Shown here piece after piece: positions 4,154-34,909 of a stretch of DNA of 64,000 bases; the first letter of the stretch is position 1, and each line of letters starts with the position of its first letter. Made by a program: the position numbers and the translations under genes. Source of the stretch: Gammaproteobacteria bacterium (GTDB taxonomy: Bacteria > Pseudomonadota > Gammaproteobacteria > Pseudomonadales > Halieaceae); NCBI GenBank assembly GCA_030427485.1, contig JAUICG010000004.1, forward strand, positions 122,955 through 186,954, given 5' to 3'. Below the pieces are notes generated by a model that was not told the DNA's origin, did no database searches, and saw only the letters and a list, made by a program, of their open reading frames with translations.

Positions 4154-4165
4154 GAGGGGGGTCGT

Positions 4166-4519: not shown

Positions 4520-4526
4520 GGTATCT

Positions 4527-4814: not shown

Positions 4815-4817
4815 TCG

Positions 4818-5483: not shown

Positions 5484-5522
5484 AAACTGCAATACTGAAC
5501 TCGCACGAAAATATTCAAGGAG

Positions 5523-5888: not shown

Positions 5889-6069
5889 TAACTTGTGCCT
5901 ACTTACGTGGTGCAAAGATCTCTGACACCAGATTATTGGCTGAAGATAGAAAAGCATTTTTGTTTTTGAAAGGGCCCGAGTCGGAAGCTCGATGATAGTG
6001 TGGGTTTTTTGGTCAGCTTTACTGAAAAGTGTGCTGAAAATTCCTGAATATTTGGACGAAGCGCCAGCC

Positions 6070-7383
6070 ATGAAAATACACCAATCAGTTAGAAAGTCAC
6101 GACACTCACTAGTGGGATTCTGCCTGGTACTGCTACTAGGTTCATTTTCAAGGGCAGCAGCCAGCGCCGAGCTGGAGTCTGTATTGACTCTGGCAGAAGC
6201 TCGATCAAATGCATTGTCCAGTAACCCGGGACTGGCAGAAATGCAGGAGCGCTATGAGGCGCTCACGCATATTGCGCCTCAGGTAAGTTCATTGCCAGAC
6301 CCGGTGGTCAGTCTTAACGCGATGAATCTGCCTTGGGATTCGTTTGATGTGAACCAGGAGCCGATGACGCAAATGCAAGTTGGCGTTAGTCAAATGTTCC
6401 CTTTTCCAGGAAAGCTTTCTCTGCGCGAGGATGTCGCAGTTTTTGAAGCCGATGCAGCCCTCCATTCGGTTGCCGAGATGAGACTCAATCTGGATATGAC
6501 TGTCTCTCTAACTTGGTGGGAAATATATTTCCTTGATCGATCACTCGAAACAGTGATCAAGAATAAGTCATTAATACGACAGTTTATAAAGATCGCGAGA
6601 ACCAAATACGAAGTCGGGAACGGATTACAGCAAGATGTGTTGCTAGCGCAGTTGGAATTGTCAAAGTTGCTCGACAGAGAGATTCAGCTTAAGTCTATGA
6701 GAGAGAATCGAGTCATCCGACTCAATGTCCTTATGGATCAGTTGCCCGATCTACCGATGCAACTTCCGACAGTAATGCCTCCATTTTCTGGAACAGTCGC
6801 CAGTGAATCGAACTTATATGAACGGGCGAGATTGGCGCGGCCTCTGCTTATGCAGGAGAAGGCTGTGATCAATGCCTCAGAGTCAAGACTCGCCCTGGCA
6901 GAGAAAGAATACTATCCGGATTTCATGGTGGGAATGGCTTACGGCAAACGAGATGAGGACACTTTTGGTCGCTCGCGAAAAGATTTTCTCTCCGTAATGT
7001 TGAGCATAAATATCCCGCTTTACGCTGGTTCAAAGCAGTCAGAGGCGGTCAAGCAGCGCGCCAGAGAACTCGCAAAGAATCGATATTCACTCGTCGATGC
7101 ACGCAATATGGTGATGTCATCGATTTCCAGCTCAGTGACAGACTATGAGCAGGCTAAAGAGCAGCTGGATCTTTACGGAAATGGAATTTTGCCTCAGGCA
7201 AGGCAAACGGTGGAATCGATGCTCGTGGGTTATCAGGTGAATGAGGTCGACTTCCTGAATTTGGTTGGCAGCCAGATCACCCTGTTGAACTATGAATTAT
7301 TGTACTGGAAAGCTTTCACGGAAATTAACCAGTCGGCGGCCCGGATCAGAGCGGCAGTTGGAGAGGAGAATATTTATGAGTAA
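6070..7383 (+). CDS. cusC: Outer-membrane efflux factor (TolC/CusC family)
   Basis: The ORF-track ORF starts at 5992. The in-frame ATG at 6070 gives MKIHQSVRKSRHSLVGFCLVLLLGSFSRAAAS, a signal peptide. The length and coiled-coil repeats fit OEP-family proteins, and the gene sits directly upstream of cusBA. Confidence 0.85.
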   Translation: MKIHQSVRKSRHSLVGFCLVLLLGSFSRAAASAELESVLTLAEARSNALSSNPGLAEMQERYEALTHIAPQVSSLPDPVVSLNAMNLPWDSFDVNQEPMTQMQVGVSQMFPFPGKLSLREDVAVFEADAALHSVAEMRLNLDMTVSLTWWEIYFLDRSLETVIKNKSLIRQFIKIARTKYEVGNGLQQDVLLAQLELSKLLDREIQLKSMRENRVIRLNVLMDQLPDLPMQLPTVMPPFSGTVASESNLYERARLARPLLMQEKAVINASESRLALAEKEYYPDFMVGMAYGKRDEDTFGRSRKDFLSVMLSINIPLYAGSKQSEAVKQRARELAKNRYSLVDARNMVMSSISSSVTDYEQAKEQLDLYGNGILPQARQTVESMLVGYQVNEVDFLNLVGSQITLLNYELLYWKAFTEINQSAARIRAAVGEENIYE

Positions 7384-16437: not shown

Positions 16438-17160
16438 CTAAGCGACGTCTTCTGCCTCCAACGCTGCCGGGCAAATAAAGCCGTTGGCGTTGTGTCGGCG
16501 GTTTCAATTGTAGTCCACTTCGATGTACTCGAACACGGTCTGCCGCATCTCCTCTCTCTCGGAGAATCTGTCCCCATGAATGGCCTCTACCTTGAACGAG
16601 TGGAGGAAGCTATCGGCACAGGCATTGTCGTAACAGTTGCCCATGGCGCTCATACTGCATAACAGATCGTGCTCCCGGATTAACTGCTGGTAGGCGCCCG
16701 AACATTACTGGCTGTCGCGATCCGAATGCACAATGACTCCGGTGGGCATGTGGCGCCGCCACAGGGCCATCTGTAGCTCGTCACAAACCAGTTGCGCGGT
16801 CATTCGCTCGGACATGGCCCAGCCGACGACTAGACTCGAATACAGTTCGATAACCACCGGCAGATACAACCAGCCCTCCTCAGTCCAAAGATAGGTGATG
16901 TCACCCACGTATTTCTGGTTACGCCCGGTGGCCGAGAAGTCCTGCTGCAACAGGTTCGGTGCCACGGGCAAATTGTGCCGGGAATTCGTGGTCGCCTTGA
17001 ATTTCTCCGTGGCCTTGGCCCGCAAGCCCTGCCGCCGCAGGCTCTCCGCGAAGGTCTTTCGGTCATGCCGGTATCCAGCCTCTTCCATATCCCGCACCAG
17101 CCAGGGTGCCCCCGAGCGGCCTTTGCGAGCGTAAGCTTCCCCATATCGAAGACAGGACAT
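16438..17160 (-). pseudogene. IS3-family transposase OrfB (rve integrase core) with two in-frame nonsense codons
   Basis: A single frame reads ...[36 protein letters not shown]...[58 protein letters not shown]...[17 protein letters not shown]... The in-frame stops are TAA at 16707-16705 and a TGA further on. OrfA and the IRs are not recognisable upstream. Confidence 0.85.
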
Positions 17161-17566: not shown

Positions 17567-17673
17567 TTTTGAGCATGGTATTTTTCATGGTATTACCAAT
17601 TATCATGAAAGTAAGGCTATGATAATAAAAGAGAAAAAAGTCTTATTTATAATCGAGTGGGAGTGACCGGAAT
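17567..17673 (+). repeat. Island repeat element, copy A
   Basis: ttttGAGCATGGTATTTTTCATGGTATT - AT-rich ~55 nt - aagtcTTATTTATAATCGAGTGGGAGTGACCGG. It lies 283 nt upstream of the 1792-aa gene and just right of the IS3 remnant. Confidence 0.9.
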
Positions 17674-17955: not shown

Positions 17956-20900
17956 ATGACTTCGCCTGAACTTACCGGAGGCACCGGTTTTACCTACGAA
18001 GATGCTGTTGTGGCATACTACTTGGTGGCTCTCGTATCGGGGACAACTGCGGCAGGTCTTTCCTCTCGTGTGGTCGAGCGTGTTGCCCAGCAGCAAGCCG
18101 ACTTTGGTGAGCCGCTCGACGACGTCATCGTTGATGCAACCGGGCTAGCCGACGACTCGACAATGAGATTGTCACTACAAGTCAAACGTTCGCTCACGAT
18201 TTCCGATGCGGCTAGCAACACTGACTTCCGTGATGTTATGCAGCGGAGTTGGCAAACGTTACAGAAGTCGGACTTTCGCGAAAACCTTGATAGAGTGGGC
18301 GGGGTCGTGGGCACAGTCTCAGATGAGGCTTTTCGCAATTTCACGACCGTGTGTGAGTGGGCTCGCTCGTCCCAAACTACATCCTCTTTCCTCCAGCGCT
18401 TTGGTGATGGCGGCAACGCTTCTGCTGCTCACCGTGACGTGATTAACGCAGTGCGTAGTATTGCTCAAGAGTCAGCGGCGGGGCCTCTCTCCGATGGAAA
18501 CCTGCATCGGCTGTTTAGTCATCTAATCCTCGTGAAGTTGGATTTTCTGCATGAAGGGTCGACCGGCGAAGCAGACGTTCTGGCCGGGTTGCAGCGCGCA
18601 TTAGTGTCCAGTCAGTCAGGGCATGCGGCAGCGCTGTGGCAACAATTACGCCAGCTAGGGCGGGACGGTGCAGGACGCAGCGCGGAATTCACTCGCGCAT
18701 CGGTTCTCAGACAACTGACTGGCGGCATGAAGTTCGTCGGTACTCCGGCCCTTGCTGGTGACCTGCTGGTGTTGGCAGAGGGGGCCAGGCACTGGTTAGC
18801 GCAACAAGCCAATGACATCGGCGAAACCCATCTCGATCGAGCCGACTTGCGTACTAAGTTGGCCGCCGAGATGGCGGGTCATCGGCTGACCCTCATAAAG
18901 GGCCTGCCCGGGACCGGCAAGTCAGTTCTTCTGCGTGATCTACTTGCGGAGTACAACGCCGATGGATCCACATTGCTTCTGACTGCGAATAGACTCTCAG
19001 GTCGCAGTTGGGCTGAATATGCTAAAGCGATCGGACTGTCAACTGTGGCGATTGAGCCGCTCTTGGTCGAGATCGCCGCGACCGGTCACGCCTTGCTGTT
19101 GATTGACGGCTTGGATCGGATTCCTCCTGAGCAGCGACCAGTTGTTACTGACTTGCTAGGGCAGATTCTGTCGAATCCAGCGTTGGCCAATTGGCGAATC
19201 ATCGCAACCGCGCGCGACGCTGGGATTGAGCCGTTGCGGAACTGGGTGTCGCCAGTGCTTCTTTCGGGTGTGGGTGTCGGGTACGTAGATGTCAAAAACC
19301 TGACGGACGAGGAAGCGTCAACGCTCGCTGAGATGCTTCCGGCGCTGCGCGGTCTCCTGACAGAGGGCGACGATCGTGTTCGCGCTATTGCTCGACGGCC
19401 CTTTTTTGCAGCTGTCTTGGCTCGTGGGTTTGCCAAATCTACGTATTCAGCTGCGTTCGCGCCGCGATCCGAAGTGGATCTCATGGATGCTTGGTGGATG
19501 CGCGGAGGCCATGACGCACAGGATTCCCAGACACTGGCCCGGCAGCGTGCACTGATCGAGTTAGCGCAGCATGGCGCACCTGAACTTGGCCGTAATATAC
19601 GCATCCGTGATCTAACGTCAGCTACGCAGGGCGTTCTTCCGGCACTGGAGGAAGACGGGCTGGTACAGCAGGTTCGGCAGGGTCACACAGCGCAGTTCAG
19701 TCATGACATTTTCTTCGAGTGGTCGTACTACCATCTGCTGCTGGACCAAGGAGACGCGTGGATCAAAGCGTTGACGGACGCGGGTGAGCCGCCGGCGTTA
19801 GCGCGGGTCGTGGAGCTGTTGTCCCAAGCCACGTATGTCGACTCTGATGAATGGGTACATAGCGTGAAGACGCTGCAGGATGCAACGGTACGCCCGCAGT
19901 GGTTGAGAGCTTGGTTGATTGCGCCGATCTTTAGCCCGGACTTTAACGAGCGAGCTGAGATTTACGCATCGACATTGTCTGAGGACAACCACAGGTTGTT
20001 CGGCAAGCTCCTGGTTTGGATACAGGCCGAGAAGACAACACCCAATCCGGCGGTCTTGTCGGGCCAACTGGGGGGAACCAATGATATGCAGGCCGCCGCG
20101 CGCATTCGCCTTGCGGATGCGCTGGGTTGGCCTTCCGACTTTGCTGCGTGGCGCCGGTTGCTCCATTGGGCGCTGGATCATCTAGCAGCAGTCCCCGATC
20201 AATACTTGCCGGATCTCGTGACGCTGTTTGAGACGTGGCAGGTGGCTGTTGCGGACATCGCGAATCCAGTTTCTGAGAGGATTGTTCAGCAGTGCGCCAC
20301 GTGGCTGCACGCCATAGAAGATGAGAAGCAGTCTCGCCGATGGCGGCATAGCATAGACGATGTCGCTGCAGAGGAGCGGGAGCGCGTTCCCACCAATCTG
20401 GAAACTGAGCTACGCAGCTTGGTACTCAGGGCAGCGCGCGCCTACCCTGACGTGGTTAGCACCTACCTTACCAAGATTGAGACCATCGAACGACTGTCAG
20501 AGTCGGCTTTCCGTGAGGTGATGGGCTACGCACCCTTGCTGGCACAGACACATGCGGAGCTCCTAACACTGGTGGCCCGTCGCACTCTGATGAAAGAGCT
20601 ACCGGATGACATAGTGGTGCGCTGGCGCGACGAAGACCGGGAGGAGGGTCGCCATCGTGCGGAGGCCAGGGCGCTTCCCGAGGATCAGCGGACGCCTTTG
20701 GATGAGCTGATGCTAGCCAGCCCAATGTTTCCAAATTCGTTGTCGGACCACGATAGGCGCCGCTTATCGATCGGTGGCGACCATCAAGGCTATTTTCCAC
20801 CATCACCACTGCGTGAGCCATTTCACTCGCTGCTGATTCACGAGCCCGAGGTTGGACTAGTTCTCATACGCGACATGGCGAACCACGCTACGACGGCTTG

Positions 20901-23334
20901 GCATCAGTTTCATCACCATATGCAAGGCGAGGGTAGCCCCTTACCACTATCACTGGAGTTTCCGTGGGGCTGTCAGGACTTTTGGGGCACTGCACTTCAG
21001 TATCAATGGTTCCGCGGACATGGTGGGCCGCAAGCGCTAGAGTGCGCCTTGATGGCGCTTGAGCGCTGGGCGCTCAATCAACTGGATGAAGGGCGTTCAA
21101 CAGCCGAAGTTTTACAGCAGTTATTGGAAGGACATTCTAGTGTTGCCATTCTGGGCATCGCCGTGCATGTGGCCCTGCGGACTCAGGAAGTATCCGCAGT
21201 AACGTTGGCGCTGCTTGGCAGTCAGAGACTTTGGCGCTATGACCTCCAGCGGTGTGTACAAGAGTCGCAATTTCGAAGTGCAGGGCTTATTGGGTTTAAT
21301 CAAGATAATACCGAGATCACGCATCGTGAGGCCGTCATCAATGCCGGCGCTTTGGAGTCTCGTGGCTGGGAGTTGCGTTCTTTGGTTCCTCTATTTGTAC
21401 TTAGGGGTAACGAGCATTTGCGCGCTGCCTGCCGTAGTGCGCTCGAGCGATTTCCAGCAGAGTTACAGTTTGATTACGAAGAGGAGGAACAGGACGAAAA
21501 CCACGTAGCCGAACTGCGGCGGACGGCCGAGTTGTGGGCCGAGTGGGGCCGTGCCGAGAATTACGAAACTTCGGCGGTGCCAGGACGAGACGACGTGGTC
21601 GCGATTGAGCTCCGCAATCCGCGACATTCCTCTCCCGAGGTACAGGAGGCGCTACAGCGCCACGATCAGGTTTCTCAAGAAATAGAGCTTTGGCTCTGGG
21701 TTGTAAAGTGCTTCGAGTCACGCGAGTGGGCACCGGGATTTTCGCCGAGTGAAGCCGTTGAGCGAGCAAGTTCGATGTTTCTGGCTGTGGGGCAAGCAGA
21801 GTCATTGCTGCCTGATAGTGCCATCGCGCATGGCGCAATCGCCGGAACTGCGGCCGCGATTTACTGTTTCTCAGATGCGGAAGACCATAAAGCCTGGGCC
21901 GACGCTACCATAATAGCGTACATGGAAGAGTCGGATGAAGATGCGGGCGATGTGTTCTCGGGGTCGATAGTCTCGTGGCATCCCAAGATTTTTGTGGCTC
22001 ATGCCTTGGCCGCTCGCGTTCGAAGCGGCGGCGCCAGCTCGAGCGACCGTCAGGATCTCTACCAGCTTGTAACCCATCCGCTTGAAGTAGTTTCCTTTGC
22101 TGCCATCGAGGGGATCGCGAAATGCTGGAGACAGGATCAGCGTTTCGCTTGGTGTGGCTTTAACTTGGGTCTGCGTTTGGCGCAGTATAGGCATACGCAA
22201 GATGCGCACACTCTGAGCGCGACGGCCCGCCGAGAGGCGGAGGAATTACGTAGAAACGACGCTCTCACTGAAGCATGTCGAGAGTATGAATCCGAGGGGG
22301 ATCTTCCAACCTGGGTGCGGCCGCATCCGTCTTGGACACAGGATTCCTCCACCCGCAGGCACTACAGGGCCGATGAGGACGACGGTTGGCATCGCTGCGA
22401 TGATACCTGGCTCAGCGATTATGCAGCGAAAGTTTTGCATCTGGTTCCAGTGGTCGATGTCATGGGTAGTGCAGCAAGAAGCCAGTATGTCGGTGCGCTG
22501 GAGGCATTTGTTGCGTGGACGCTAGACACGCTCAACCCGGCGTGGCGAACGGAGCGTCGACGTGGTCGCGAACGTGATGGCGCCGGTTTGTATGAGTGGC
22601 AGGATGAGCTGGGGCGATTGATCGCACGAGTTGCGCCGCACCTACCTGCGGCAGAGGTGCGGGAGAAGTTGTTAGACCCCATTCTGGATCAGCCTGACGA
22701 GATTGCGATGCAACTACTACGTCCCTTTACCATAGCCATCACTTGCTCGGAAATCTTGGACTCGCCGGTGATCACGGATGACACGTTGGAGTTACTTCAG
22801 GCTGTGTTGGATCGTACGCTGCAACACCGTGACTTGTACCGATCGAGCTACAACAATGGGAGGATCAGTGGCTTCGACCTGCCTGACTTGATTAAGTCTT
22901 TGTTGTTTGTATTTGTGGAGCGTGCGGATATGGCGGCGCGATTCGCGAATGGAAACTGGAGCGACCTCCCACGGGTGTTGCCGCTAGTGGACAAAATGGT
23001 CCGGCAAGCTGGCTGGATCCCCTACATTGCGAGACAGTTTGTCACTCTCTGCGAAAGAGCAGGAGCCGACTATCCTGCGGACGTTCTCTCGGAACAGATC
23101 CTGGCACAGATTGAAGATGGAAACTTACCTTCGGGGTGGAAGGGAACGGGCATACCAGCATCGATTGCCGGAATTGTCCAAACGCATGCCGACCGACTAC
23201 ATCCTTTACCAGTTGAGTTGGCTCAAAAACTGTTACATATCTTAGATGCTCTTGTTGACCTCGGGGACCGTCGCAGCGCCGCACTTCAGTCAAGCGAATC
23301 ATTTCGTGGCGTGCGTCTACCGAGCGGCGCCTAG
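17956..23334 (+). CDS. Giant (1792 aa) NLR/STAND-like protein: Cap4/DUF4297-like PD-(D/E)xK nuclease N-domain + NACHT-like P-loop NTPase + ~1300-aa helical C-terminal region
   Basis: The N-terminus TGGTGFTYEDAVVAYYLVALV...PLDDVIVD...MRLSLQVKRS matches the GF.YQ...D...QxK pattern of Cap4-type nucleases. Walker A is LIKGLPGTGKSVLL (~18901-18924). Walker B is ALLLIDGLDRI (~19093-19116), as in NACHT modules. The rest is all-helical with no further recognisable motif. Confidence 0.75.
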   Translation: MTSPELTGGTGFTYEDAVVAYYLVALVSGTTAAGLSSRVVERVAQQQADFGEPLDDVIVDATGLADDSTMRLSLQVKRSLTISDAASNTDFRDVMQRSWQTLQKSDFRENLDRVGGVVGTVSDEAFRNFTTVCEWARSSQTTSSFLQRFGDGGNASAAHRDVINAVRSIAQESAAGPLSDGNLHRLFSHLILVKLDFLHEGSTGEADVLAGLQRALVSSQSGHAAALWQQLRQLGRDGAGRSAEFTRASVLRQLTGGMKFVGTPALAGDLLVLAEGARHWLAQQANDIGETHLDRADLRTKLAAEMAGHRLTLIKGLPGTGKSVLLRDLLAEYNADGSTLLLTANRLSGRSWAEYAKAIGLSTVAIEPLLVEIAATGHALLLIDGLDRIPPEQRPVVTDLLGQILSNPALANWRIIATARDAGIEPLRNWVSPVLLSGVGVGYVDVKNLTDEEASTLAEMLPALRGLLTEGDDRVRAIARRPFFAAVLARGFAKSTYSAAFAPRSEVDLMDAWWMRGGHDAQDSQTLARQRALIELAQHGAPELGRNIRIRDLTSATQGVLPALEEDGLVQQVRQGHTAQFSHDIFFEWSYYHLLLDQGDAWIKALTDAGEPPALARVVELLSQATYVDSDEWVHSVKTLQDATVRPQWLRAWLIAPIFSPDFNERAEIYASTLSEDNHRLFGKLLVWIQAEKTTPNPAVLSGQLGGTNDMQAAARIRLADALGWPSDFAAWRRLLHWALDHLAAVPDQYLPDLVTLFETWQVAVADIANPVSERIVQQCATWLHAIEDEKQSRRWRHSIDDVAAEERERVPTNLETELRSLVLRAARAYPDVVSTYLTKIETIERLSESAFREVMGYAPLLAQTHAELLTLVARRTLMKELPDDIVVRWRDEDREEGRHRAEARALPEDQRTPLDELMLASPMFPNSLSDHDRRRLSIGGDHQGYFPPSPLREPFHSLLIHEPEVGLVLIRDMANHATTAWHQFHHHMQGEGSPLPLSLEFPWGCQDFWGTALQYQWFRGHGGPQALECALMALERWALNQLDEGRSTAEVLQQLLEGHSSVAILGIAVHVALRTQEVSAVTLALLGSQRLWRYDLQRCVQESQFRSAGLIGFNQDNTEITHREAVINAGALESRGWELRSLVPLFVLRGNEHLRAACRSALERFPAELQFDYEEEEQDENHVAELRRTAELWAEWGRAENYETSAVPGRDDVVAIELRNPRHSSPEVQEALQRHDQVSQEIELWLWVVKCFESREWAPGFSPSEAVERASSMFLAVGQAESLLPDSAIAHGAIAGTAAAIYCFSDAEDHKAWADATIIAYMEESDEDAGDVFSGSIVSWHPKIFVAHALAARVRSGGASSSDRQDLYQLVTHPLEVVSFAAIEGIAKCWRQDQRFAWCGFNLGLRLAQYRHTQDAHTLSATARREAEELRRNDALTEACREYESEGDLPTWVRPHPSWTQDSSTRRHYRADEDDGWHRCDDTWLSDYAAKVLHLVPVVDVMGSAARSQYVGALEAFVAWTLDTLNPAWRTERRRGRERDGAGLYEWQDELGRLIARVAPHLPAAEVREKLLDPILDQPDEIAMQLLRPFTIAITCSEILDSPVITDDTLELLQAVLDRTLQHRDLYRSSYNNGRISGFDLPDLIKSLLFVFVERADMAARFANGNWSDLPRVLPLVDKMVRQAGWIPYIARQFVTLCERAGADYPADVLSEQILAQIEDGNLPSGWKGTGIPASIAGIVQTHADRLHPLPVELAQKLLHILDALVDLGDRRSAALQSSESFRGVRLPSGA

Positions 23335-23456: not shown

Positions 23457-23488
23457 ATGTCCGAAATAATGGTACAAATTTCGGACAT
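23457..23488. promoter_or_regulatory. Inverted-repeat operator candidate abutting the abiEi start
   Basis: ATGTCCGAAAT-aatggtacaa-ATTTCGGACAT (11-bp perfect arms). Related TCGGA half-sites occur at 23415-23419 and 23437-23441. The right arm ends in the probable abiEi ATG (23487). Confidence 0.5.
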
Positions 23489-24140
23489 GAGAGACACTAC
23501 ATCAGACTTGAAGACTGCGATCTTGGCGCGTATCGAAAACGGTGTGCAGCAAGGGGTCTGGACGCCACGAGATTTCCTCGATCTTGGCGCGCGCGATGCC
23601 GTTGACAAAACACTGCAGAGGCTGACACGCTCTGGAATTTTGCGGCGAGTCGATCGTGGTCTTTACGACAAGCCCTTACTCAATAGCCTGACACAACAGA
23701 GCAGTCCCCCCGATCCAAGACATGTCATTGATGCGATTGCTCGGCGAGATCAGGTTCGTGTACTTGTCGATGGCATGACCGCGGCAAATGATCTTGGGCT
23801 GACGAATGCGGTTCCTGCGAAGGTTGTTGTGCATACCGATGCGCGGCTCAAACCAATCTCGCTCGGCCAAATGGAAATCATCTTCAAGCCAACGGCTGCA
23901 AGCAAGTTATATTGGGCCGGGAGGCCGGCAATGCGCATCGTTCAGGCGCTGCATTGGTTGCGAGATACCATGGGCCAGGGAGATGAAGACGAGATATTGA
24001 TCCGTCGCCTGAACGCAATTCTTCATGATCAGGATGATGGCCGAATGCTTCGAGCGGATTTGTCTGAGGGCCTGCCGACACTGCCGAGCTGGATGCAGAG
24101 TTTGCTGAACCCGATGCTAAAAGAGCAGGTTAGCTCATGA
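23487..24140 (+). CDS. abiEi: AbiEi-type (DUF6088-like) type IV TA antitoxin / transcriptional regulator
   Basis: The track ORF starts at 23457, and I prefer the in-frame ATG at 23487 (MRDTTSDLKTAILARIENG...). ...WTPRDFLDLGARDAVDKTLQRLTRSGILRRVDRGLYDKP... is the wHTH signature of AbiEi-like antitoxins. The stop overlaps the abiEii start (ATGA). Confidence 0.75.
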   Translation: MRDTTSDLKTAILARIENGVQQGVWTPRDFLDLGARDAVDKTLQRLTRSGILRRVDRGLYDKPLLNSLTQQSSPPDPRHVIDAIARRDQVRVLVDGMTAANDLGLTNAVPAKVVVHTDARLKPISLGQMEIIFKPTAASKLYWAGRPAMRIVQALHWLRDTMGQGDEDEILIRRLNAILHDQDDGRMLRADLSEGLPTLPSWMQSLLNPMLKEQVSS

Positions 24141-25233
24141 TGAATCCTGAATTCGATCAGATTATGTCAGCGGACCACGAGACGCGGTTGGGTCTTTTTA
24201 CGACAACGGCTCAGCGTTTGGGAACCACTGCCCAGAATGTCGAAAAGGACTTCTGGGTTTGCTGGACTCTCGATGCGCTTTTCAATGGATTGCAAGACAG
24301 ACCCCGGCTGCTGTTCAAGGGTGGCACATCGCTCTCCAAAGGATATGGACTGATAAAACGATTCTCAGAAGATATCGACGTTACGGTATTCCGTGACGCT
24401 CTGGGAGAAGCGGCTTCAATTGAAGAGCTAAAAGCACTCAGCGGTAAGAAACGTGGCAAGGCTCTGGATGACATCAAGGCAGCCTGCGAGACTTACATCA
24501 ACGGACCGTGCTTAGCTGGACTTTCAGCGATCGTTAGCGAAGTAGCGAAGTAGCGAATCGCAATGGATTCAACAAAAGCCAATTTTTCGTCGAGCCAGAT
24601 CCTGAAGACAATCAGGCTCTATATCTGCGCTACCCGACCGCGACGCCTGTCGACACCTATATCACCAAGACGGTAAAAATAGAGTCGGGCGCCAAATCGG
24701 CCCTCGATCCCAACTCCAAACGCATCATCCGACCATATCTAGAAGACGATGTCCCTGGTATCGATCTGTCTGTCGGCAATGTTACAACAGTCGATGCGCA
24801 ACGAACCTTCTGGGACAAGGTTGTGATCCTGCATGGGCTTCGGCGCTGGTTCGATATCCGCGGTGAGCTCAAAGGGGATGGCCAGCCCGTATCGCGCCAC
24901 TATTATGATGCTTGCCAGCTATTGGCATCGCCGGTCGGGCAAAAGGCGCTGCAGGATCGCGAACTGGGCGCCGACTGCGTCGCACATGCCCGCATGTTCT
25001 TCAACCGTCCTGCCTTCGATCTCGCGACAGCAGTGGCGCCCACATTTGCCATTCGTCCGGAAGGAAAGGTGCTCGACGACCTTCGGCGCGACTATCGCGC
25101 CATGTCGGGCATGATCTTCGGCAAAGCTCCCGCGTTCGAAGCGATTATCGAGGACATAGCCGTGCTTGAGACAGCGCTGAACGCACAACCGACAGAGGGC
25201 GCTTCAGAGGCTGGCGGCCAGGGGCATGGCTAA
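24137..25233 (+). pseudogene. abiEii: AbiEii/AbiGii-family nucleotidyltransferase toxin (DUF1814), disrupted by an 8-bp tandem repeat expansion
   Basis: The N-terminal part (24137-24553) contains FKGGTSLSKGYGLIKRFSEDIDVTVF, the NTase GS...DxD motif. The frame stops at TAG 24551-24553. The rest continues stop-free in the frame of track ORF 24823-25233 from 24559 (RNGFNKSQFFVEPDPEDNQALYLRYP...). Deleting one 8-nt unit restores a 362-aa ORF. Confidence 0.8.
24535..24558 (+). repeat. 8-bp tandem repeat x3 inside abiEii
   Basis: TAGCGAAG TAGCGAAG TAGCGAAT. The third unit supplies the premature TAG. Confidence 0.95.
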
Positions 25234-28200
25234 AAAAACAAAAGCCAGAAAGCGGCGTCGCGATTCGAAGCAAGCTCCACATTTAGCCAAGGCAGCATCG
25301 AGAGCCGGATCGAATGCTGGGCGAGGGTTCAGGTATCAGGACGCAGTCTCGGTTTGGTTGGCGATAGAGATATGGACCGGTCGCCGGGCGCCGGCTATCT
25401 TGATCCCGGAAGGTGGTGATGATGTCGAATTACGTGGCGAAGAAACCACGTATATCCAAGTCAAAAGCCGACGCGAACATCTCGGTGATTATTCGGAAGG
25501 CGTGGCAGCAGGTTATATAAAAGAGCTGTGGGGCCGATCGCTTAGTTCCTCCCCGCAGCCGGAACGACTGGAGCTCGTTCTCGAACGGAACGTCGTCGGC
25601 TTTACCCCTCTCGGAGTGCAGCCAGCAAGTCGCGCTATCGAGGGACCAATCGCTACGAAGCTTTTTGAGTTCAGCCCATCTGACGAACTTCTCCCGAAAA
25701 CATCGATACAAATTTCCACCTCGCCCCAAGAGTGGTCAATCAGCATGATTGTCGACCAATTGAATTGTTCTCCGATCGCGGCCCAGATGTGTTTCGCAGA
25801 ACTGCTAGTTCGCGTGGGTGCTTTAGCCGATGCCAACGGCCGACTTTCGCCGGGAAACTATCGTGGACTTTCGGTCAGTGATATCGAGACATCAATTCGC
25901 GATGTAATGGCCGCTGTCGATGTTGCCTCAATCGAGGGCGCTATCCAGGAAGGTATCTGCGAACCGGTCGACTTTCTGACACCCCTCAATGATCCGAACT
26001 TCTATCTCGGGGTCGATGTGCAGCCAGGCCACATCGCCGCAGGGCTGGTTTCGGAACGCCCCAAGGGTCGGTTTGCTTTGGTTCAGGGCCTTGAAGAACG
26101 TCGCGCCGCCCTGATCATAGGTCCGTCCGGAGCGGGGAAATCTGCGTTGATGTGGGAGGCAGCCAACGCGTTGCGCCATACGGTGCGATGGTTCCAGATC
26201 CGTCGGCTCGAGATGACAGATATTCCCGCCATACGACAACTGATTCGGACGTTCCGCGCTTCCCAAGGAAGTCCCGTGGGTTTCGTAATGGACGATGTCG
26301 GGCGAAACAGTCCGGAGAGTTGGGGAGCACTGCTCAAAGAATCGATGTCGATTCCCGGTGTCATCATGCTCGGTTCGGCCCGGGAAGAAGATGTAACGTT
26401 GATCGCGGAGCGCGCTCGTGCAGTCGAAGTACGCGCGGACCCTGACGGTGAATTGGCGGAGCGACTCTGGAAGGAATTGCGCGAAGCTGGAAAGACGGAC
26501 TGGGCGGGTTGGCGAGAGCCATGGAAACTGAGTGATGGTCTCCTTCTTGAATATGTCCATATTCTTACGCGCGGCCGGAGGATGCAGGAAGTATTGGCCG
26601 ATCAGGTCGCGGCTAGAATCTCGGACCCAGCGCGTTCGCTTGAGCTCGATATTTTGCGATCCGCCTCATGGGCTGGTGCGGCAAATGCTGAAATCGATGC
26701 CTCGCGATTGGTCCGCACGCTCTCTGTAAGTGAAGCTGATCTATCCTCAGCGCTGCAGCGGCTAATCCACGAGCATTTGGTTCGGTCGCCTGTGCCTGGT
26801 ACTCTTGCTGGTCTGCACCAACTTCGATCTAAAGAGTTACTGCGTGTGACCCATCAGACAATGTTGCCGACTCTGCAAACGAGTTTCGAACGGACAGTCG
26901 CGAGCGTGCATGCTGTCAATCTCGAACCCTTGGTCGCCGACGCCTTATTTGCGCGGCGCCTGCCGGTCTTGGCAGTGCTCAATAGTTTGATCGTCCGGTT
27001 GGAGAATGAACCAGATGCACGGGCTCTCGCATCAGGACTTCGAGGCTTGGGCTCCGGACGCATTTCTGCTGGAGTGGATGAGTGGCTGGAAACTTCCGAG
27101 GCCCGCGCCCTCCCGCGAACGCAGGTCGGGACCGCTGCAATGTTCGGAATCGCCGGTATCGATCTTGGCAGTCTCGACATTATCCCGGAAGTTCAAGCTG
27201 CAGCCGATCGGCTCTCCCGGATCAAAGGTTCGCCGGAAGATGACCCTCGTCGCTTGCTGATGGAGCGTATGGCCTCGTCCACCTTGTCTGTTCTGATAGA
27301 GGAGGCGGATCTGACGAGCCTTGATGAGATTCTTGGAGCTCTACTCGGTGTGCCTTTATCAGTGGCAGTGCGGTCCGCACTCAGGCGGATTCCATCAAAC
27401 TTACTGAATGCTGATTTGCACCTCGTAGGCTCAGTTATGGGAACGTTGACCGCGCTCGACCGCGAGATCGCGATCCAGTGGGCCACTGAGGTCGGACAAG
27501 AGGTGCTCTTTGCAAAGATTCAGGCAGAGACCGCTTGGGCCGGACCTGTATCTATTGAAAAAGGGGATGACGGAGTGATCGTTCACTGCGACCTCTGGTA
27601 TGTGGCTGGGTCCGTTCAAGGAAATCCGCATGACACAGTTGTGAGTCTATGCGAGTTGATCTTGGCTCTGTGCCCGTCGGCTGACATCGCGATGTCGAGT
27701 GCAATCACTGTGAGCGGTGAGTTGGCAGGTCTTGCTGAGCTGCCGCTTGTAACCAAACGTATACCGCGAGGGAATCTCCCGCCACCATCTCTTCCGCAAT
27801 GGAACAGGCGCTGGGGCGATCTGGTTTCCCGTCGCATCGCCGCTCCAAGTTATAGCGACTATCTTGCAAGAGGTGTGGCTATCCTCGAAGTCCTTGTGCC
27901 CACGTTGGCGAAGATCTTCGATGCACATTTTCGCGGAAAGGAGGCGCCTAGCGGCCTTTTCGAGACGCTCAATTCGCTCAATGCAGAGACCGAGGCGCTG
28001 ACACCTCCAGCTATTTCGTCATTTGTCGCGTCAGGCGCAGGGAGTGAAGACGCAAGCACCGCAGTCACCAAGTTCCAGAATCTGCTTCACAGCTCAAGTG
28101 TGAATCTGATTAAAGGGTTCGCGAAGCTACCTGAACAAGCAGGCGCGTATATCGCTTGGTTGAATGATCTCATCACTGATGTGGATGTTGAGATTGCTGA

Positions 28201-29116
28201 GGAGCCATGGCAGCTTATTGCCGATTGCTCCCCATCAGCGCTAGCGCGACTGAAGGCCCTTTTGGAAACACTGCGGTTGCTTGCCGGTGAAGCCCATGAG
28301 CGACAGGAGCCTCCGGCAGCAACTTGGGCGGGCCGTGGCAAGGGGGCGCGCGTGGGTAACGCCTTACGGCGGGTGTCGCTTTCAGCTGAGGCTGCAGGAG
28401 AAAAGCGATTGGTTCAGCTTAAGGCAGAAATTGAACGGTCGACGAAAGAGGCGGGGATCAAGGCGGTTTTCCATCTCCGGGTCAACCCAAACGGTATTCT
28501 GCCGTGGCCTCCGGTGGATGTTCTCGCGCTGCTTCCGTCTAGTGACGTTGCAGGTGCAGTGATTGCGCTCAATCAGCAAACGGATCTGTTGCGATCGTTT
28601 GTAGATTCCGCGATGCATCTGACAGTCCTGCCCTTTATCAATGGTGTTGCGTTCCCAGCGCTCGCGAAGTCTGGAATTCGGACTTTTTTACCAGATATTG
28701 AGGGCGCCACAGCTTGGACCAAAAATCTCAATTTGGCGTGCGCGTCATCAGAGACGTCTGGTCTGTTTGGCGAAGTGCTGAGCGTGGCGGCTGAACTCCG
28801 AGCAATGGATCGTCTGGAGCTTGGTGTCGAATCTCGGCCTGAAGCCGAAGTGATCGCACGCCGAAGCCTGGAGGTCTCTTTCGGTGAGAAGAGAGAACAG
28901 CTGGTCCAACAACTGGGCAACTTTGACCGGGATGCTCAAACAGATTTTTTCGAGTTGATCGAGCGTCTGCGAACCGGGGAAATAGATTTTATTGCGGAAG
29001 CGCAGGCAGCGATTGGCGGGGTCTCAACAGAGATTATGGAAACTACAGGTTATTTGACCCTGCTTGTGATCGAATATGAGTGGCAGGCCGAAGTGGTCAA
29101 AAGGGAATCGAAATAG
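25226..29116 (+). CDS. Giant (1296 aa) Cap4/DUF4297-like nuclease + P-loop NTPase + helical C-terminal protein
   Basis: Basic tail MAKKTKARKRRRDSKQ. Then GRGFRYQDAVSVWLAIEIW...IPEGGDDVELRGEETTYIQVKSRRE, which is GF.YQ / E..DD / QxK. Walker A is ALIIGPSGAGKSALMWE (~26120-26143). The Walker-B-like motif is VGFVMDDVG. The start ATG overlaps the abiEii stop (ATGGCTAA). Confidence 0.8.
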   Translation: MAKKTKARKRRRDSKQAPHLAKAASRAGSNAGRGFRYQDAVSVWLAIEIWTGRRAPAILIPEGGDDVELRGEETTYIQVKSRREHLGDYSEGVAAGYIKELWGRSLSSSPQPERLELVLERNVVGFTPLGVQPASRAIEGPIATKLFEFSPSDELLPKTSIQISTSPQEWSISMIVDQLNCSPIAAQMCFAELLVRVGALADANGRLSPGNYRGLSVSDIETSIRDVMAAVDVASIEGAIQEGICEPVDFLTPLNDPNFYLGVDVQPGHIAAGLVSERPKGRFALVQGLEERRAALIIGPSGAGKSALMWEAANALRHTVRWFQIRRLEMTDIPAIRQLIRTFRASQGSPVGFVMDDVGRNSPESWGALLKESMSIPGVIMLGSAREEDVTLIAERARAVEVRADPDGELAERLWKELREAGKTDWAGWREPWKLSDGLLLEYVHILTRGRRMQEVLADQVAARISDPARSLELDILRSASWAGAANAEIDASRLVRTLSVSEADLSSALQRLIHEHLVRSPVPGTLAGLHQLRSKELLRVTHQTMLPTLQTSFERTVASVHAVNLEPLVADALFARRLPVLAVLNSLIVRLENEPDARALASGLRGLGSGRISAGVDEWLETSEARALPRTQVGTAAMFGIAGIDLGSLDIIPEVQAAADRLSRIKGSPEDDPRRLLMERMASSTLSVLIEEADLTSLDEILGALLGVPLSVAVRSALRRIPSNLLNADLHLVGSVMGTLTALDREIAIQWATEVGQEVLFAKIQAETAWAGPVSIEKGDDGVIVHCDLWYVAGSVQGNPHDTVVSLCELILALCPSADIAMSSAITVSGELAGLAELPLVTKRIPRGNLPPPSLPQWNRRWGDLVSRRIAAPSYSDYLARGVAILEVLVPTLAKIFDAHFRGKEAPSGLFETLNSLNAETEALTPPAISSFVASGAGSEDASTAVTKFQNLLHSSSVNLIKGFAKLPEQAGAYIAWLNDLITDVDVEIAEEPWQLIADCSPSALARLKALLETLRLLAGEAHERQEPPAATWAGRGKGARVGNALRRVSLSAEAAGEKRLVQLKAEIERSTKEAGIKAVFHLRVNPNGILPWPPVDVLALLPSSDVAGAVIALNQQTDLLRSFVDSAMHLTVLPFINGVAFPALAKSGIRTFLPDIEGATAWTKNLNLACASSETSGLFGEVLSVAAELRAMDRLELGVESRPEAEVIARRSLEVSFGEKREQLVQQLGNFDRDAQTDFFELIERLRTGEIDFIAEAQAAIGGVSTEIMETTGYLTLLVIEYEWQAEVVKRESK

Positions 29117-29123: not shown

Positions 29124-29230
29124 TTTTTGATCATGGTATTTTTCATGGTATTTCGTTTTTGGTAAAATGTAACTAATTGAAAAATAAGTAATATAAATGG
29201 CTATTTACAATCGAGTGGGAGTGACCGGAA
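29124..29230 (+). repeat. Island repeat element, copy B
   Basis: ttttttGATCATGGTATTTTTCATGGTATT - AT-rich - aatggCTATTTACAATCGAGTGGGAGTGACCGGAA. It starts 8 nt after the 1296-aa gene stop and ends 130 nt upstream of 29360. Confidence 0.9.
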
Positions 29231-30987: not shown

Positions 30988-31059
30988 GACAAAGTGGCAG
31001 GACAGACAGTTTGCACGGCTGAAAGCCGCCCGCCAAGGTGCGGCACAGGGATGTGCCGC

Positions 31060-32205
31060 ATGAAATGGATATGGCAGCAACCCGACTGGCCAGATTTTCG
31101 CTATGACAATCGCGCGCTCAATGATCGGGAACTTGAGTTTCGTCTGAACTCAGAGCGCTTGGCGGGTAGCTTTGATGCACTTCCCATGGCATCTAAACAG
31201 GATGCCACGATCGATTTGATGCTTTCCGAGGCCATCAAAACTAGCGCCATTGAAGGCGAGAATCTGGACAGGGAATCAGTCAGGTCATCGCTACTCTCTT
31301 TGATAACATCGGATACGTTGCGGGACAACTCAGACGTGAAAGCGGCGGGGGCTGCTGCGCTGCTGGTGGACGTTCGCAAGAACTGGCGTTCATCCCTGAC
31401 ACATGACCTGCTGGGCAAGTGGCAATCCATGGCTGTACCGGAACAGCGCTATACGCCTATTTTGCGAGGCGCATATCGCAACGACCCTTCGCCAATGCAA
31501 ATCGTGAGCGGGCCTTATGGCCGGGAAAAGGTTCATTATGAAGCTCCGCCAGCGATCCGGGTGCCTGATGAAATGGCGAGATTTCTCGGCTGGTACAACA
31601 AGACCAGTCCTTCAAGAGATCACAACACGAAATCAGGGATTGCCCGAGCCGGTATTGCCCATCTGTGGTTTGAAATTATTCATCCCTTTGACGATGGTAA
31701 TGGGCGAGTCGGTAGGGCGATCGCTGACCACGCTCTTTCGCAGTTTCTCGGTTATCCGACAACCGCCTGCCTTGCCACTGCGATAGAGGCGGATAAGAAA
31801 ACTTATTACCTGCAACTGGAGAAAGCGAGTCGTACAAGTCTGGACGTTAACACCTGGCTCGATTACTTTGCCGATAGGGTCATCATGGCACAGGAAATTG
31901 CCCGGGAAGAGGTACACTTTGTATTGAGCAAGACACGTTTTTATGAGGTCTATGGTAATCAGTTGAATGACCGGCAGGCCCGGATGGTGTCGCGGGTATT
32001 CGCTGAAGGCCGGAAGGGCTTTGAAGGTGGAATAACGACCAGGAAATATGAAGCGATCACCAAGTGCCCAAACCGAACGGCTAGCCGCGATTTGTCAGAC
32101 CTGGTTGCCAAAGGAATCATCATCCCGCTACCGGGTGGAGGCAGGACGACCCGATATGAGTTGAGCATTGACGAACCGGTCGGTTTTGGTTTCGGGGAGA
32201 GATAA
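31060..32205 (+). CDS. Fic/DOC family protein with DUF4172-like N-terminus and C-terminal wHTH (paralog 1, intact)
   Basis: The start is chosen by alignment with paralog 2 (MKWIWQQPDWPDFRY vs MRWIWQQSDWPGFRY); the track ORF begins at 30994. Fic motif HPFDDGNGRVGRA. N-terminal inhibitory-helix-like TSAIEG, matching (S/T)xxxE(G/N). Confidence 0.9.
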   Translation: MKWIWQQPDWPDFRYDNRALNDRELEFRLNSERLAGSFDALPMASKQDATIDLMLSEAIKTSAIEGENLDRESVRSSLLSLITSDTLRDNSDVKAAGAAALLVDVRKNWRSSLTHDLLGKWQSMAVPEQRYTPILRGAYRNDPSPMQIVSGPYGREKVHYEAPPAIRVPDEMARFLGWYNKTSPSRDHNTKSGIARAGIAHLWFEIIHPFDDGNGRVGRAIADHALSQFLGYPTTACLATAIEADKKTYYLQLEKASRTSLDVNTWLDYFADRVIMAQEIAREEVHFVLSKTRFYEVYGNQLNDRQARMVSRVFAEGRKGFEGGITTRKYEAITKCPNRTASRDLSDLVAKGIIIPLPGGGRTTRYELSIDEPVGFGFGER

Positions 32206-32250: not shown

Positions 32251-32347
32251 CCAAGTATGGTATTTTTCATGGTATTCACCTGTGGCAAGAAATTAAGCTA
32301 TTGGATATAGAAGAGAATAAAGTCTTATTGATAATCGAGTGGAAGTA
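32251..32347 (+). repeat. Island repeat element, copy C
   Basis: ccaagTATGGTATTTTTCATGGTATT - AT-rich - aagtcTTATTGATAATCGAGTGGAAGTA. It lies 46 nt after the fic-1 stop and 380 nt upstream of the RelE-like gene. Confidence 0.85.
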
Positions 32348-33445: not shown

Positions 33446-34906
33446 GTGAATTTTTCCGGCTGGCAGGCCAGGTTTCGCCGTTTACAGGATGAACACGCGA
33501 CCTGGAAGTTGTTGCGCGCGGACAACGCCCCCATCATTCTCGCCTTCATTGCCGATCTGTTCGCGGAGGAGAATGAAGTACCCTTCGCGCGGGCACGCAT
33601 CGCTCTGGATGCGGAACTGGAACGCGGCCGGGAATTGGGTTACTGGCAAAGCGAAAGCGGGGCAGGCATCTACCTGAACCAGTGGATACGCGCGGGCTGG
33701 CTGCGAGAAATGGACGACATGCTGAGTAAAACTGACGCCAGTGAAACCGCGTTACGATTTTGCCGGACACTCGACGAACCGACTGCCGGTACCTCCGCCT
33801 CCCATCTTCGAATCGTACAGGAAGCGGTGCGAGATTTTGCTGTTGCGGTCAACCCGGATCTTGACGAGCGGGTCGCCCAGCTTGAGCAACGCCAGCAGGA
33901 AATCCAGCACAGCATAGACGATCTGCGTGCGGGCGCGAGCGTGGAGCTCAGTGAAACCGAACAACGTGAACGCATACGCGAGATTTACCAGTTGGCGTCG
34001 GTGCTGACCGGTGATTTTCGCCGTGTGGAGGATGAGATTCGACGCATTGACAAGGATTTAAGAATCCAGATCATCGAAGGTGATTCCACCCGCGGGAACG
34101 TGTTGCTCGAACTGATGGAGAAGGAGATTCTGCTAGCGAATACTGATGCGGGCAGTGCATTCGAAGGATTTTTTCAGCTGTTGTGTGACCAGAACCGCTC
34201 GACCGAATTCAGCGATCAGTTACGTGGTATCCTCAGCCTGCCGGTGGCCCATCACCTCAATCCCGCCCAGCGCCAGTTCCTTGTCCGGTTGATGCGCGAA
34301 TTGTCACGCGAGAGCGAGCGCGTGTTCCGCATCCGTCGGCGTACCGAAGAGGGCTTGCGCGGGTATATCGAAAGTGGCGTGGCTCAGGAAAACCGCGCGG
34401 TGACGCGCCTGTTGTCCGAGCTGGAACGCAGCGCCATCGCCCTACGCGAAAACGGCTGTGATTTGAAGACACGAACCCGGCTGGAACTGCAGGTTGGCGT
34501 ACCCGAAATTCGATCTCCCGAAAGCATGAATCTGCGACTGCCAGACGAAAACCTGGATACCTCTGGCGTCGAGGAGCAGGCCAATCGCCGCGAGCCGAGT
34601 AAGGAAATGCTCGACAGCCTGGAGGCGGTACAGATCCGCCGAGTCGCCGAGCGTACCCTGGCGGCCCTGCGCCGATATGGTCCCATGACGATTTCCGCGT
34701 TATCCCGATACCAACCGCTACAGGCGGGGCTGGAAGAACTGGTTGCCTGTATGAGGGTGGCCCGTGCCGTTCACGCGACGGACCTCAATACCACCGAACT
34801 GGTCGAAGTCCACGATAAACAGGGTTCGCGGATTATGGCCTCGATTCCCGGGCTCCTGATGAGCGCCGAATTGTTTCCCGCCAACATCGACGAGCTGACG
34901 CTGTAG
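33446..34906 (+). CDS. jetA: Wadjet JetA (DUF3375 / MksB-like kleisin)
   Basis: 486 aa with a GTG start. It is the first of four tightly packed genes. The N-terminus ...WKLLRADNAPIILAFIADLF... and the length fit DUF3375. Confidence 0.8.
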   Translation: MNFSGWQARFRRLQDEHATWKLLRADNAPIILAFIADLFAEENEVPFARARIALDAELERGRELGYWQSESGAGIYLNQWIRAGWLREMDDMLSKTDASETALRFCRTLDEPTAGTSASHLRIVQEAVRDFAVAVNPDLDERVAQLEQRQQEIQHSIDDLRAGASVELSETEQRERIREIYQLASVLTGDFRRVEDEIRRIDKDLRIQIIEGDSTRGNVLLELMEKEILLANTDAGSAFEGFFQLLCDQNRSTEFSDQLRGILSLPVAHHLNPAQRQFLVRLMRELSRESERVFRIRRRTEEGLRGYIESGVAQENRAVTRLLSELERSAIALRENGCDLKTRTRLELQVGVPEIRSPESMNLRLPDENLDTSGVEEQANRREPSKEMLDSLEAVQIRRVAERTLAALRRYGPMTISALSRYQPLQAGLEELVACMRVARAVHATDLNTTELVEVHDKQGSRIMASIPGLLMSAELFPANIDELTL

Positions 34907-34909
34907 CCT

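Follow-up and report, generated by a model that had tools for sequence, protein, structure and literature searches.

The window analyzed here, a stretch of 64,000 nucleotides (nt) from contig JAUICG010000004.1 of a gammaproteobacterium of the family Halieaceae (assembly GCA_030427485.1), carries a complete gene (17956..23334, + strand, stop codon included) for a protein of 1792 amino acids (aa), in which a predicted nuclease domain of the Cap4 fold, with an intact set of putative catalytic residues, is followed by a STAND nucleoside triphosphatase (NTPase) and a long helical sensor homologous to that of Avs4. The gene forms a single-gene system and is located in a genomic island rich in defense genes. 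It is quite probable, in our view, that the product works by itself as an antiviral pattern-recognition receptor of the STAND (Avs) type, that it belongs to a large and divergent branch that is a sister of Avs4, and that it acts by the mechanism proposed below. A first-pass annotation, made by a model from the sequence and a list of open reading frames (ORFs), had suggested an effector-STAND NTPase-sensor layout and a role in defense, and it was right on both counts.

The ORF (17956-23334, +) begins with ATG, and its translation contains every motif quoted in that annotation: TGGTGFTYEDAV at residues 7-18, LDDVIVD at 54-60, LQVK at 74-77, GLPGTGKS at 316-323 and LLLIDGLD at 380-387. The alignment with 20 homologues backs the start codon, since M1 and, shortly after it, S3, E5, L6 and T7 are invariant. 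The motifs are far beyond chance, because their key residues D55, D56, Q75, K77, K322, D384, D387 and R388, together with R420, are invariant in 78 of 78 full-length relatives from at least eight phyla. Promoter and terminator consensus sequences, searched for in the surroundings of the gene, gave no information, as they were less frequent there than in shuffled sequences.

The C-terminal sensor and its relationship to Avs4

The C-terminal part of the protein (residues 620-1792, 19813..23331, +) was identified as an Avs4-like α-helical sensor by a combination of AlphaFold2 modeling, Foldseek and hhalign. The model has a mean predicted local distance difference test score (pLDDT) of 77.4 and consists mostly of helices with a few hairpins, as the first-pass annotation had anticipated for the remainder of the protein. 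The Foldseek search of the Protein Data Bank (PDB) with this model (1173 aa) identified as the best match 8dgf_A/8dgf_B (E 4e-15, TMq 0.53-0.54 by template modeling (TM) score, 1255 columns), i.e. EcAvs4 bound to the portal of PhiV-1 (PDB 8dgf). The next matches were generic α-solenoids (exportins, karyopherins, PA200) with E 3e-5 or worse and TM ≤0.24, so that 8dgf is ahead of them by ten orders of magnitude. At the thresholds applied to sensor clustering by Lee et al. 2026 (Foldseek E ≤ 1e-10, TM ≥ 0.40, 80% coverage), the sensor falls within the Avs4 superfamily, with an AlphaFold2 model as the query and the comparison made outside the clustering pipeline itself.

At the sequence level, the relationship is concentrated in the most conserved block of the sensor (residues 933-1154, 20752..21417, +), which contains the motif GDHQGYFPPSPLREPF and is the only stretch of the protein matched to Avs4 by sequence models. 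The NCBIfam Avs4 model aligned its positions 768-988 with residues 937-1154 (E 3.6e-26), and the PADLOC Avs4 model matched residues 936-1154 (E 9e-17). A profile of 20 family members, compared with the sequences in the PDB, identified 8dgf_A (E 1.9e-6, residues 933-1143 versus 771-987) and nothing besides Avs4 below E 0.1; a phmmer search of the same sequences with the single protein returned Avs4 alone, at a non-significant level (E 0.21). In distant members of the family, picked up by a profile of the C-terminal part, the PADLOC Avs4 model is matched over a longer range, with E 1.3e-38 for its positions 191-1082 and E 1.3e-31 for 190-1161.

The profile-profile comparison extended this similarity to nearly the whole protein. 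Avs4 genes for it were taken from plasmids by tblastn, namely EcAvs4 (WP_062914738.1; NCBIfam Avs4 score 2064 bits), a second E. coli Avs4 type (2054 bits), an Avs4 from Calothrix (1868 bits) and Avs4-like proteins from Haliscomenobacter (582 bits) and Hymenobacter (442 bits). The hhalign comparison of the family with all five gave a probability of 99.6% and E 5.9e-24 over 1281 columns, from the P-loop region to 1540/1556, and that with the three canonical Avs4 proteins gave a probability of 91.9% and E 7e-7 over 1224 columns, from the P-loop region to 1499/1576. The alignment starts in the P-loop region (query columns 329-331 versus Avs4 positions 181-195) and leaves residues 1-290 uncovered. 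It pairs HQGYFPPSP of the family with HHDYYPESP of Avs4, and an LDxxVxxG-like motif occurs near the C-terminus in both the family and the Avs4 consensus; in BLASTP the corresponding ILDALVDLG of our protein aligns with LLDKMVDFG of the Hymenobacter protein in a short segment that is non-significant alone (E 0.38). The NTPase, the winged-helix domain (WHD) and the sensor are homologous end to end with those of Avs4. We place the family on a divergent branch of the Avs4 superfamily, where a nuclease of the predicted Cap4 fold stands instead of the Mrr-like nuclease of EcAvs4. The suggestion of the first-pass annotation that neither the C-terminal region nor the protein as a whole resembles any named subtype is therefore incorrect, given the Avs4 homology found by NCBIfam, PADLOC, hhalign and Foldseek.

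The Hymenobacter protein deserves separate mention. It is a protein of 1679 aa annotated as hypothetical (WP_245097727.1), encoded at 1843-6879 of the Hymenobacter aerilatus plasmid NZ_CP095054.1. BLASTP revealed that it also shares the N-terminal domain and the NTPase of our protein (25% identity, residues 7-676, E 3e-30), including the GGxG, DD and QxK motifs. Judging from these sequence similarities, it is an apparent evolutionary intermediate that bridges canonical Avs4 and the family described here.

The STAND NTPase

The nucleotide-binding domain (approximately residues 296-450, 18841..19305, +) was delineated from weak Pfam matches, invariant residues and the hhalign alignment. It comprises the Walker A motif GLPGTGKS (nt 18901-18924, +) with the invariant K322, the Walker B motif LLLIDGLD (nt 19093-19116, +) with the invariant D384 and D387 and the subsequent R388, and the sensor-1 arginine R420 (motif ATARD). 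The remainder of the STAND module, of helical and winged-helix character (approximately residues 451-619, 19306..19812, +), comes next and is marked by the motif SHDIFFEW at 582-589, whose residues H583, D584, I585, F587, E588 and W589 are invariant in the family alignment; hhalign pairs it with THDIYEEW (EcAvs4 residues 468-475), which is invariant in canonical Avs4. From position we infer that residues 451-619 correspond to the WHD, and likewise which motif sits in which subdomain. Judged by its motifs, the domain is a STAND NTPase: it combines Walker A with a Walker B that contains two acidic residues, and it has the arginine of sensor-1 as well as a conserved histidine in the WHD.

The narrower description of the P-loop module as NACHT-like, given in the first-pass annotation, finds less backing, in that the STAND motifs are invariant but the protein scores 23.6 bits against Pfam NACHT (PF05729), whose gathering score is 26.7. 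Other Pfam matches in residues 305-450 (AAA_22, NPHP3_N, nSTAND3 and nSTAND_NTPase5) are likewise sub-threshold, and AAA_16 is among the weak matches of the protein or its relatives. NACHT is matched weakly by 20 of 20 relatives (best E 2.6e-8), and many relatives carry precomputed PF05729; in distant members of the family nSTAND1, nSTAND3 and AAA match as well as NACHT, and Pfam NACHT has no match in canonical Avs4. The NACHT label given by NCBI to the relatives is thus weakly supported at the sequence level.

These results bear on the possibility that the protein is a guard of the bNACHT type, which would respond not to a phage protein that it binds itself but to the disturbance of a host factor (e.g. 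a chaperone, as in the DnaJ-dependent bNACHT). The names of the relatives at NCBI and the uniform, if weak, match of all 20 to NACHT speak for it, architectures composed of a restriction endonuclease (REase), NACHT and a helical region do exist (e.g. bNACHT25), and a bacterial NACHT protein has been reported to sense indirectly (PMC11185742). However, the score of our protein remains below the NACHT gathering score, nSTAND1, nSTAND3 and AAA families match about equally well, and the NTPase together with the WHD aligns best with Avs4, which is a direct binder. We regard a guard of this kind as improbable.

The predicted N-terminal nuclease domain

Residues 1 to approximately 240 (17956..18675, +) are predicted to form a PD-(D/E)xK nuclease of the Cap4/DUF4297 fold, according to the AlphaFold2 model, Foldseek and residue conservation, and a helical linker (approximately residues 241-295, 18676..18840, +, with modeled helices at 247-253 and 264-283) connects it with the NTPase. 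The model of residues 1-300, built from an alignment of 44 sequences, has a mean pLDDT of 87.6 and a predicted TM score (pTM) of 0.81; the linker is modeled with lower confidence than the rest (pLDDT 63-77) and belongs to the least conserved N-terminal blocks. The Foldseek search of the PDB confidently identified Cap4 (6vm5, 6wan, 6vm6, 6wam), LmuA (9hr5, 9nxx) and HamA (8zue), which account for all of the top 17 matches; the significant ones range from E 4e-5 to 9e-3 (probability 0.98-1.0), and no other fold rose above noise. In the model, a helix (14-28) is followed by three strands (39-45, 57-62, 69-79), a helix (89-102) and a strand (113-120). Because of this order of secondary structures, E15, D55/D56 and Q75-x-K77 can be placed at the positions expected for a PD-(D/E)xK active site and are the putative catalytic residues; E15 is retained in 77 of the 78 full-length relatives.

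The Pfam Cap4_nuclease family (PF14130) did not match the protein at E ≤ 0.1, nor did it match 20 close relatives (E ≤ 0.01) or five distant ones, and the Cap4 assignment was consequently made by structure. In fact, residues 1-300 have no Pfam match of any kind in the protein or in these close and distant relatives, and a search with the N-terminus only found precomputed Pfam domains on this region in none of the 120 matches listed. The proposal of a Cap4/DUF4297-type N-terminus in the first-pass annotation is therefore supported at the level of the predicted fold and active site, but not by the Pfam family. The only match at the sequence level, and hence the closest relative of the nuclease domain at that level, was DUF626_VIII (residues 2-173, nt 17959-18474, E 2e-17), the PADLOC model of the type VIII retron accessory protein (PMC7736814). 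This match suggests that the retron type VIII effector would also carry a nuclease module of the Cap4 fold, missed by its annotation as 'putative serine esterase, DUF626'.

Size, spread and conservation of the family

The family is large and phylogenetically broad, and at present its members are annotated only generically, for example as 'NACHT domain-containing protein' or 'ATP-binding protein'. A search with the full-length sequence returned 878 matches; the length is about 1790 aa in every one of the 120 listed, which show 61-81% identity to our protein and come from Pseudomonas, Burkholderia, Paraburkholderia, Polaromonas, Azotobacter and Rhodanobacter. A profile of the C-terminal part, searched against 1.84 billion representatives, matched 1582 of them at 50% identity clustering (370 at E ≤ 1e-30); the full-length proteins among them range from approximately 1690 to 1940 aa, with nearly all lying between 1720 and 1820 aa, and they share the starting point of the match. 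When species-representative genomes were scanned, two peptide patterns alone were enough to find the family in 224 of them, from which 80 loci were kept (35-74% identity, nearly all spanning residues 1-1790). These loci belong to Alpha-, Beta- and Gammaproteobacteria, Desulfobacterota, Nitrospirota, Firmicutes, Verrucomicrobiota, Acidobacteriota, Fibrobacteres and Actinobacteria. The gene also occurs on several plasmids, e.g. one of Polaromonas naphthalenivorans CJ2 (64% identity), and no homologue was found in the phage collection searched.

Conservation within the family is highest in the nuclease (1-100), in the Avs4-like block (951-1100) and in the C-terminal region (1651-1792), and lowest in residues 801-850, 1151-1350 and 1401-1550. 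The very C-terminal tail (residues 1751-1792, 23206..23331, +, LDALVDLGDRRSAALQSSESFRGVRL), delimited by its conservation in the family, has the highest conservation outside the nuclease (mean 0.71, 62% identity to a distant subfamily).

Several observations weigh against the assignment of the family to an Avs4-related branch with a Cap4-type effector. The score against the NCBIfam Avs4 equivalog (NF041815) is 90.8 bits, derived mainly from residues 937-1154, whereas the cut-off is 1500 bits, and the PADLOC Avs4 match is limited to approximately 210 of the 1570 positions of the model. The identity of the sensor to that of EcAvs4 amounts to only 13-17%, its length is greater by about 200 residues, and the global confidence of its model is moderate (pTM 0.54). 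At the N-terminus, the TM scores are also moderate (0.40-0.45 over 300 residues, linker included), and without a PF14130 match the nuclease assignment rests on predicted structure and motif conservation. Finally, the architecture of about 1790 aa is rigid at 35-40% identity across phyla, and effector swapping was not seen among the members examined, so that the family shows less variation than classical Avs families are reported to have.

The protein is not an Avs4 in the strict sense, because it reaches 91 instead of 1500 bits, carries another effector, contains about 200 extra residues and has a sensor with the low identity given above. The label 'unassigned family' of the first-pass annotation can thus be retained insofar as the protein stays below the annotation cut-off; it has to be given up insofar as the match to Avs4, a named system, is confident. 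One might go further and regard the family as a distinct, still unnamed Avs family, in which a longer, Avs4-derived sensor may have been retargeted to a trigger other than the portal protein and the rigid architecture may reflect an extra conserved interaction. An additional interaction is conceivable because the length is fixed at about 1790 aa at such low identity across at least eight phyla and the C-terminal tail is near-invariant; by analogy with EF-Tu in Avs7, it may involve a host co-factor in the active complex. We find this extended version doubtful, though worth keeping in mind.

Proposed mechanism and the identity of the trigger

In Avs3 (Cap4, recognizing terminase), Avs4 (Mrr, recognizing the portal) and Avs7 (Cap4, recognizing the major capsid protein), target binding leads to tetramers with nuclease activity: binding to the sensor relieves autoinhibition, the NTPases tetramerize and nuclease dimers degrade double-stranded DNA (PMC13581612; bioRxiv 10.64898/2026.08.25.746987). 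By analogy with these proteins, we propose that the resting form of our protein would be an autoinhibited monomer, whose Avs4-like helical sensor of about 1170 aa would, during infection, bind a conserved phage protein, the first candidate being the portal, by homology with Avs4. Binding would free the STAND NTPase for ATP binding and oligomerization (into a tetramer in Avs3, Avs4 and Avs7), and within the oligomer the N-terminal PD-(D/E)xK domains of the Cap4 fold would pair to form active nuclease dimers, which would degrade double-stranded DNA indiscriminately and so abort the infection. Thus, it is on Avs3, Avs4 and Avs7 that the presumed trigger, oligomeric state, DNase activity and abortive outcome are modeled.

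The portal protein as the specific trigger is a tentative prediction from analogy, to which we give slightly less than an even chance. The trigger could differ from that of Avs4 because of the low identity of the sensor and its extra residues, and a receptor with the same Avs-type nuclease mechanism might recognize a different virion protein or a replication protein, or else respond to several unrelated triggers, as bNACHT11 is reported to do. The length and divergence of the sensor relative to EcAvs4 are in agreement with such a retargeting, as is the poor conservation, even within the family, of the segments 801-850, 1151-1350 and 1401-1550. According to Lee et al. 2026, unrelated sensors can converge on one target (both Avs4 and Avs11 sense the portal) and each family has its own target. 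Nevertheless, the whole sensor superimposes on the portal-bound sensor of EcAvs4 (TM 0.53), and those homologous sensors that have been studied so far tend to keep the class of their target: the major capsid protein is sensed by both Avs7 and Dsr1, and terminase by Avs1 and Avs3, as well as by Avs2, whose sensor is unrelated. A phage protein other than the portal is the main rival and a serious possibility, albeit one we would not favor outright.

Comparison with known systems

Avs4 (AVAST type 4; EcAvs4, 8dgf; NF041815) is, like our protein, a single-gene STAND receptor with an N-terminal nuclease of the PD-(D/E)xK superfamily, a homologous NTPase and WHD and a sensor that is homologous over its entire helical length, found in defense islands and on plasmids. 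The two share the motifs (S/T)HDI(F/Y)xEW and H(Q/H)xY(F/Y)PxSP. They differ in the effector, which is Mrr-like in EcAvs4 and has the predicted Cap4/DUF4297 fold in our protein (8dgf is outside the top 50 Foldseek matches of the N-terminus), and in length, our protein being approximately 200 residues longer.

SeAvs3 (8dgc) and SeAvs7 resemble our protein in combining a Cap4-type nuclease with a STAND NTPase and a sensor built of tetratricopeptide repeat (TPR)-like elements, and since their target-induced tetramerization assembles Cap4 dimers (PMC13581612), the same activation logic is likely here. However, no sequence similarity to them was detected with the family profile among the PDB sequences, and their sensors, which recognize terminase (Avs3) and the major capsid protein with EF-Tu (Avs7), differ from that of our protein. 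Cap4 (CBASS), LmuA (Lamassu) and HamA (Hachiman) share the E...D...QxK pattern of the active site, but they are activated by cyclic oligonucleotides via the SAVED domain, or by partner ATPases or helicases, and lack the fusion to a STAND NTPase. The accessory protein of the type VIII retron is a protein of 474 aa annotated as a serine esterase, which acts together with a reverse transcriptase (PMC7736814). The PADLOC PDC-M54A models take in the N-terminal domain and the NTPase, matching residues 112-607 at E 2e-12 and relatives at up to E 2e-24; they represent PDC-M54, a candidate system of several genes, whose C-terminal part has no match to our protein. Finally, bNACHT proteins with an REase effector (bNACHT25) show a similar succession of an REase-type nuclease, a NACHT-like NTPase and a helical C-terminus and have a single-gene antiphage function, but the NTPase of our protein is only marginally NACHT-like by Pfam, and none of its PADLOC matches was a model named for a bNACHT or NLR-like system. 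By homology our protein is clearly closest to Avs4, not to bNACHT.

Prokaryotic STAND proteins have been catalogued systematically (Lee et al., Nature 2026), with 589 clades and 684 sensor clusters distinguished and at least 90 Avs families recognized. Our finding does not open a new category, as Cap4-STAND-TPR receptors (Avs3, Avs7) are already known and both the sensor and the NTPase come from a named family; what distinguishes the family is the coupling of a predicted Cap4-type effector to a divergent Avs4-like sensor, in a group set apart from Avs4 by the NCBIfam and PADLOC models, which match at most a block of about 220 aa of our protein. The link to Avs4 provides the family with a testable mechanism and with the portal protein as a first candidate trigger. 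Moreover, the family represents a natural experiment, in which an Avs4-type sensor is coupled to a Cap4-type instead of an Mrr-type effector, with the Hymenobacter protein as a likely intermediate; it may thus be useful for studying how STAND receptors diversify in both sensor and effector.

Genomic neighborhood

The analysis of genomic neighborhoods revealed a recurrent location of the family in defense islands and mobile elements with variable neighbors, as is typical of defense systems in general. In other genomes, the gene was accompanied by an integrase, HNH and McrBC genes at one locus, by HigBA, Abi_2 and type IV secretion system genes of an integrative and conjugative element (ICE) at another, and by a retron reverse transcriptase with a phosphoribosyltransferase (PRTase) and a Gabija-like pair at a third. 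All-versus-all clustering of the flanking ORFs of 82 loci yielded no cluster present in more than five loci, i.e. no conserved partner gene. On these grounds we regard the system as a single-gene one, and a multi-gene system of the kind represented by the PDC-M54 candidate was rejected.

In the window, the gene lies in an island of low guanine and cytosine (GC) content (approximately 0.48-0.59, compared with approximately 0.61 after 44 kb), flanked by insertion sequence (IS) remnants on one side and by AbiE, a second Cap4-STAND protein, a SoFic-like Fic protein and Wadjet on the other. The island contains heavy-metal efflux genes, IS remnants, AbiE, the second Cap4-STAND protein, a SEC-C protein, three Fic proteins (one SoFic-like), a JetABCD Wadjet system and a truncated TOTE/ResIII helicase. 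A search for tRNA genes in the window found none.

The location on plasmids, ICEs and integrase-flanked islands could also be read as a sign that the protein has no immune role, either because it is a STAND-regulated nuclease that serves its mobile element (addiction, competition between elements) or because the gene has decayed. In keeping with this, its neighbors in the window are partly decayed: AbiEii is split, an rve integrase core just upstream of the gene (16705-17160, -) is a fragment, and the TOTE helicase is truncated. But the ORF itself is full-length with intact putative catalytic residues and is under strong purifying selection across phyla, its neighbors in other genomes are predominantly known defense systems, and carriage by mobile elements is typical of defense genes. 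We therefore consider the absence of an immune role very improbable, and the antiviral Avs-type receptor remains the preferred interpretation.

The genes downstream of the receptor were identified by profile searches. An intact AbiEi gene (23457-24140, +; Pfam/PADLOC) is followed by AbiEii split into two ORFs (24137-24553 and 24823-25233, +; Pfam AbiEii profile), of which one corresponds to the N-terminal third of the profile and the other to its positions 156-237, with approximately 270 nt between them. AbiEii has probably become a pseudogene by disruption, in which case AbiEi is an orphan antitoxin. The first-pass annotation had correctly placed our gene first behind an island repeat and beside AbiE, its repeat copy lying 290 nt upstream of the gene.

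It had also pointed to a second protein of the same layout. This protein (1296 aa, 25226-29116, +) indeed shows a weak match to Cap4_nuclease (PF14130, E 1e-3) and an AAA_16/nSTAND P-loop, as well as matches to the LmuA and HamA PADLOC models (E 4e-4 or weaker), but a search of the PDB sequences gave no match. The two large proteins were rejected as paralogues, since BLASTP found no similarity beyond a GxGFxYxDAV-like motif at the N-terminus. The second one may be another, less well placed Cap4-STAND defense protein.

Further downstream, a complete four-gene Wadjet system JetABCD (33446-40290, +) consists of DUF3375, DUF4194/MksE, a 1159-aa SMC-like ATPase and JetD. Three genes encode Fic domains (30994-32205, 42932-43786 and 44372-45811, +); two of them have a DUF4172 N-terminus, the first of these matching the SoFic model (E 2e-35), and the third is fused to TPR repeats. 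The truncated ResIII/DEAD helicase (40318-41376, -) starts with the last ~46 profile positions of the TOTE archaeo-eukaryotic primase (AEP) domain; together with the rve fragment, it indicates decay and rearrangement in the island.

The repeat mentioned above is an AT-rich sequence of approximately 93 nt, which occurs in four copies on the same strand, at 17572-17664, 29130-29222, 32254-32346 and 44129-44148 (about 44094-44234). The copy upstream of our gene (17572..17664, +) is treated here as part of the context of the gene. The invariant core of 20 nt, ATGGTATTTTTCATGGTATT, occurs four times versus zero expected and is itself a direct repeat of ATGGTATT; the conserved 3' end reads TATTnAnAATCGAGnGGnAG. 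The repeat was absent from 88 of 88 fetched loci. Its copies divide the island into four blocks, with (1) our gene, AbiE and the second Cap4-STAND protein, (2) SEC-C and Fic, (3) Wadjet, the TOTE fragment and Fic, and (4) the TPR-Fic protein, and the last copy coincides with the jump in GC content at about 44 kb. The repeat could represent a cassette or att-like boundary, or else a shared operator or regulatory element.

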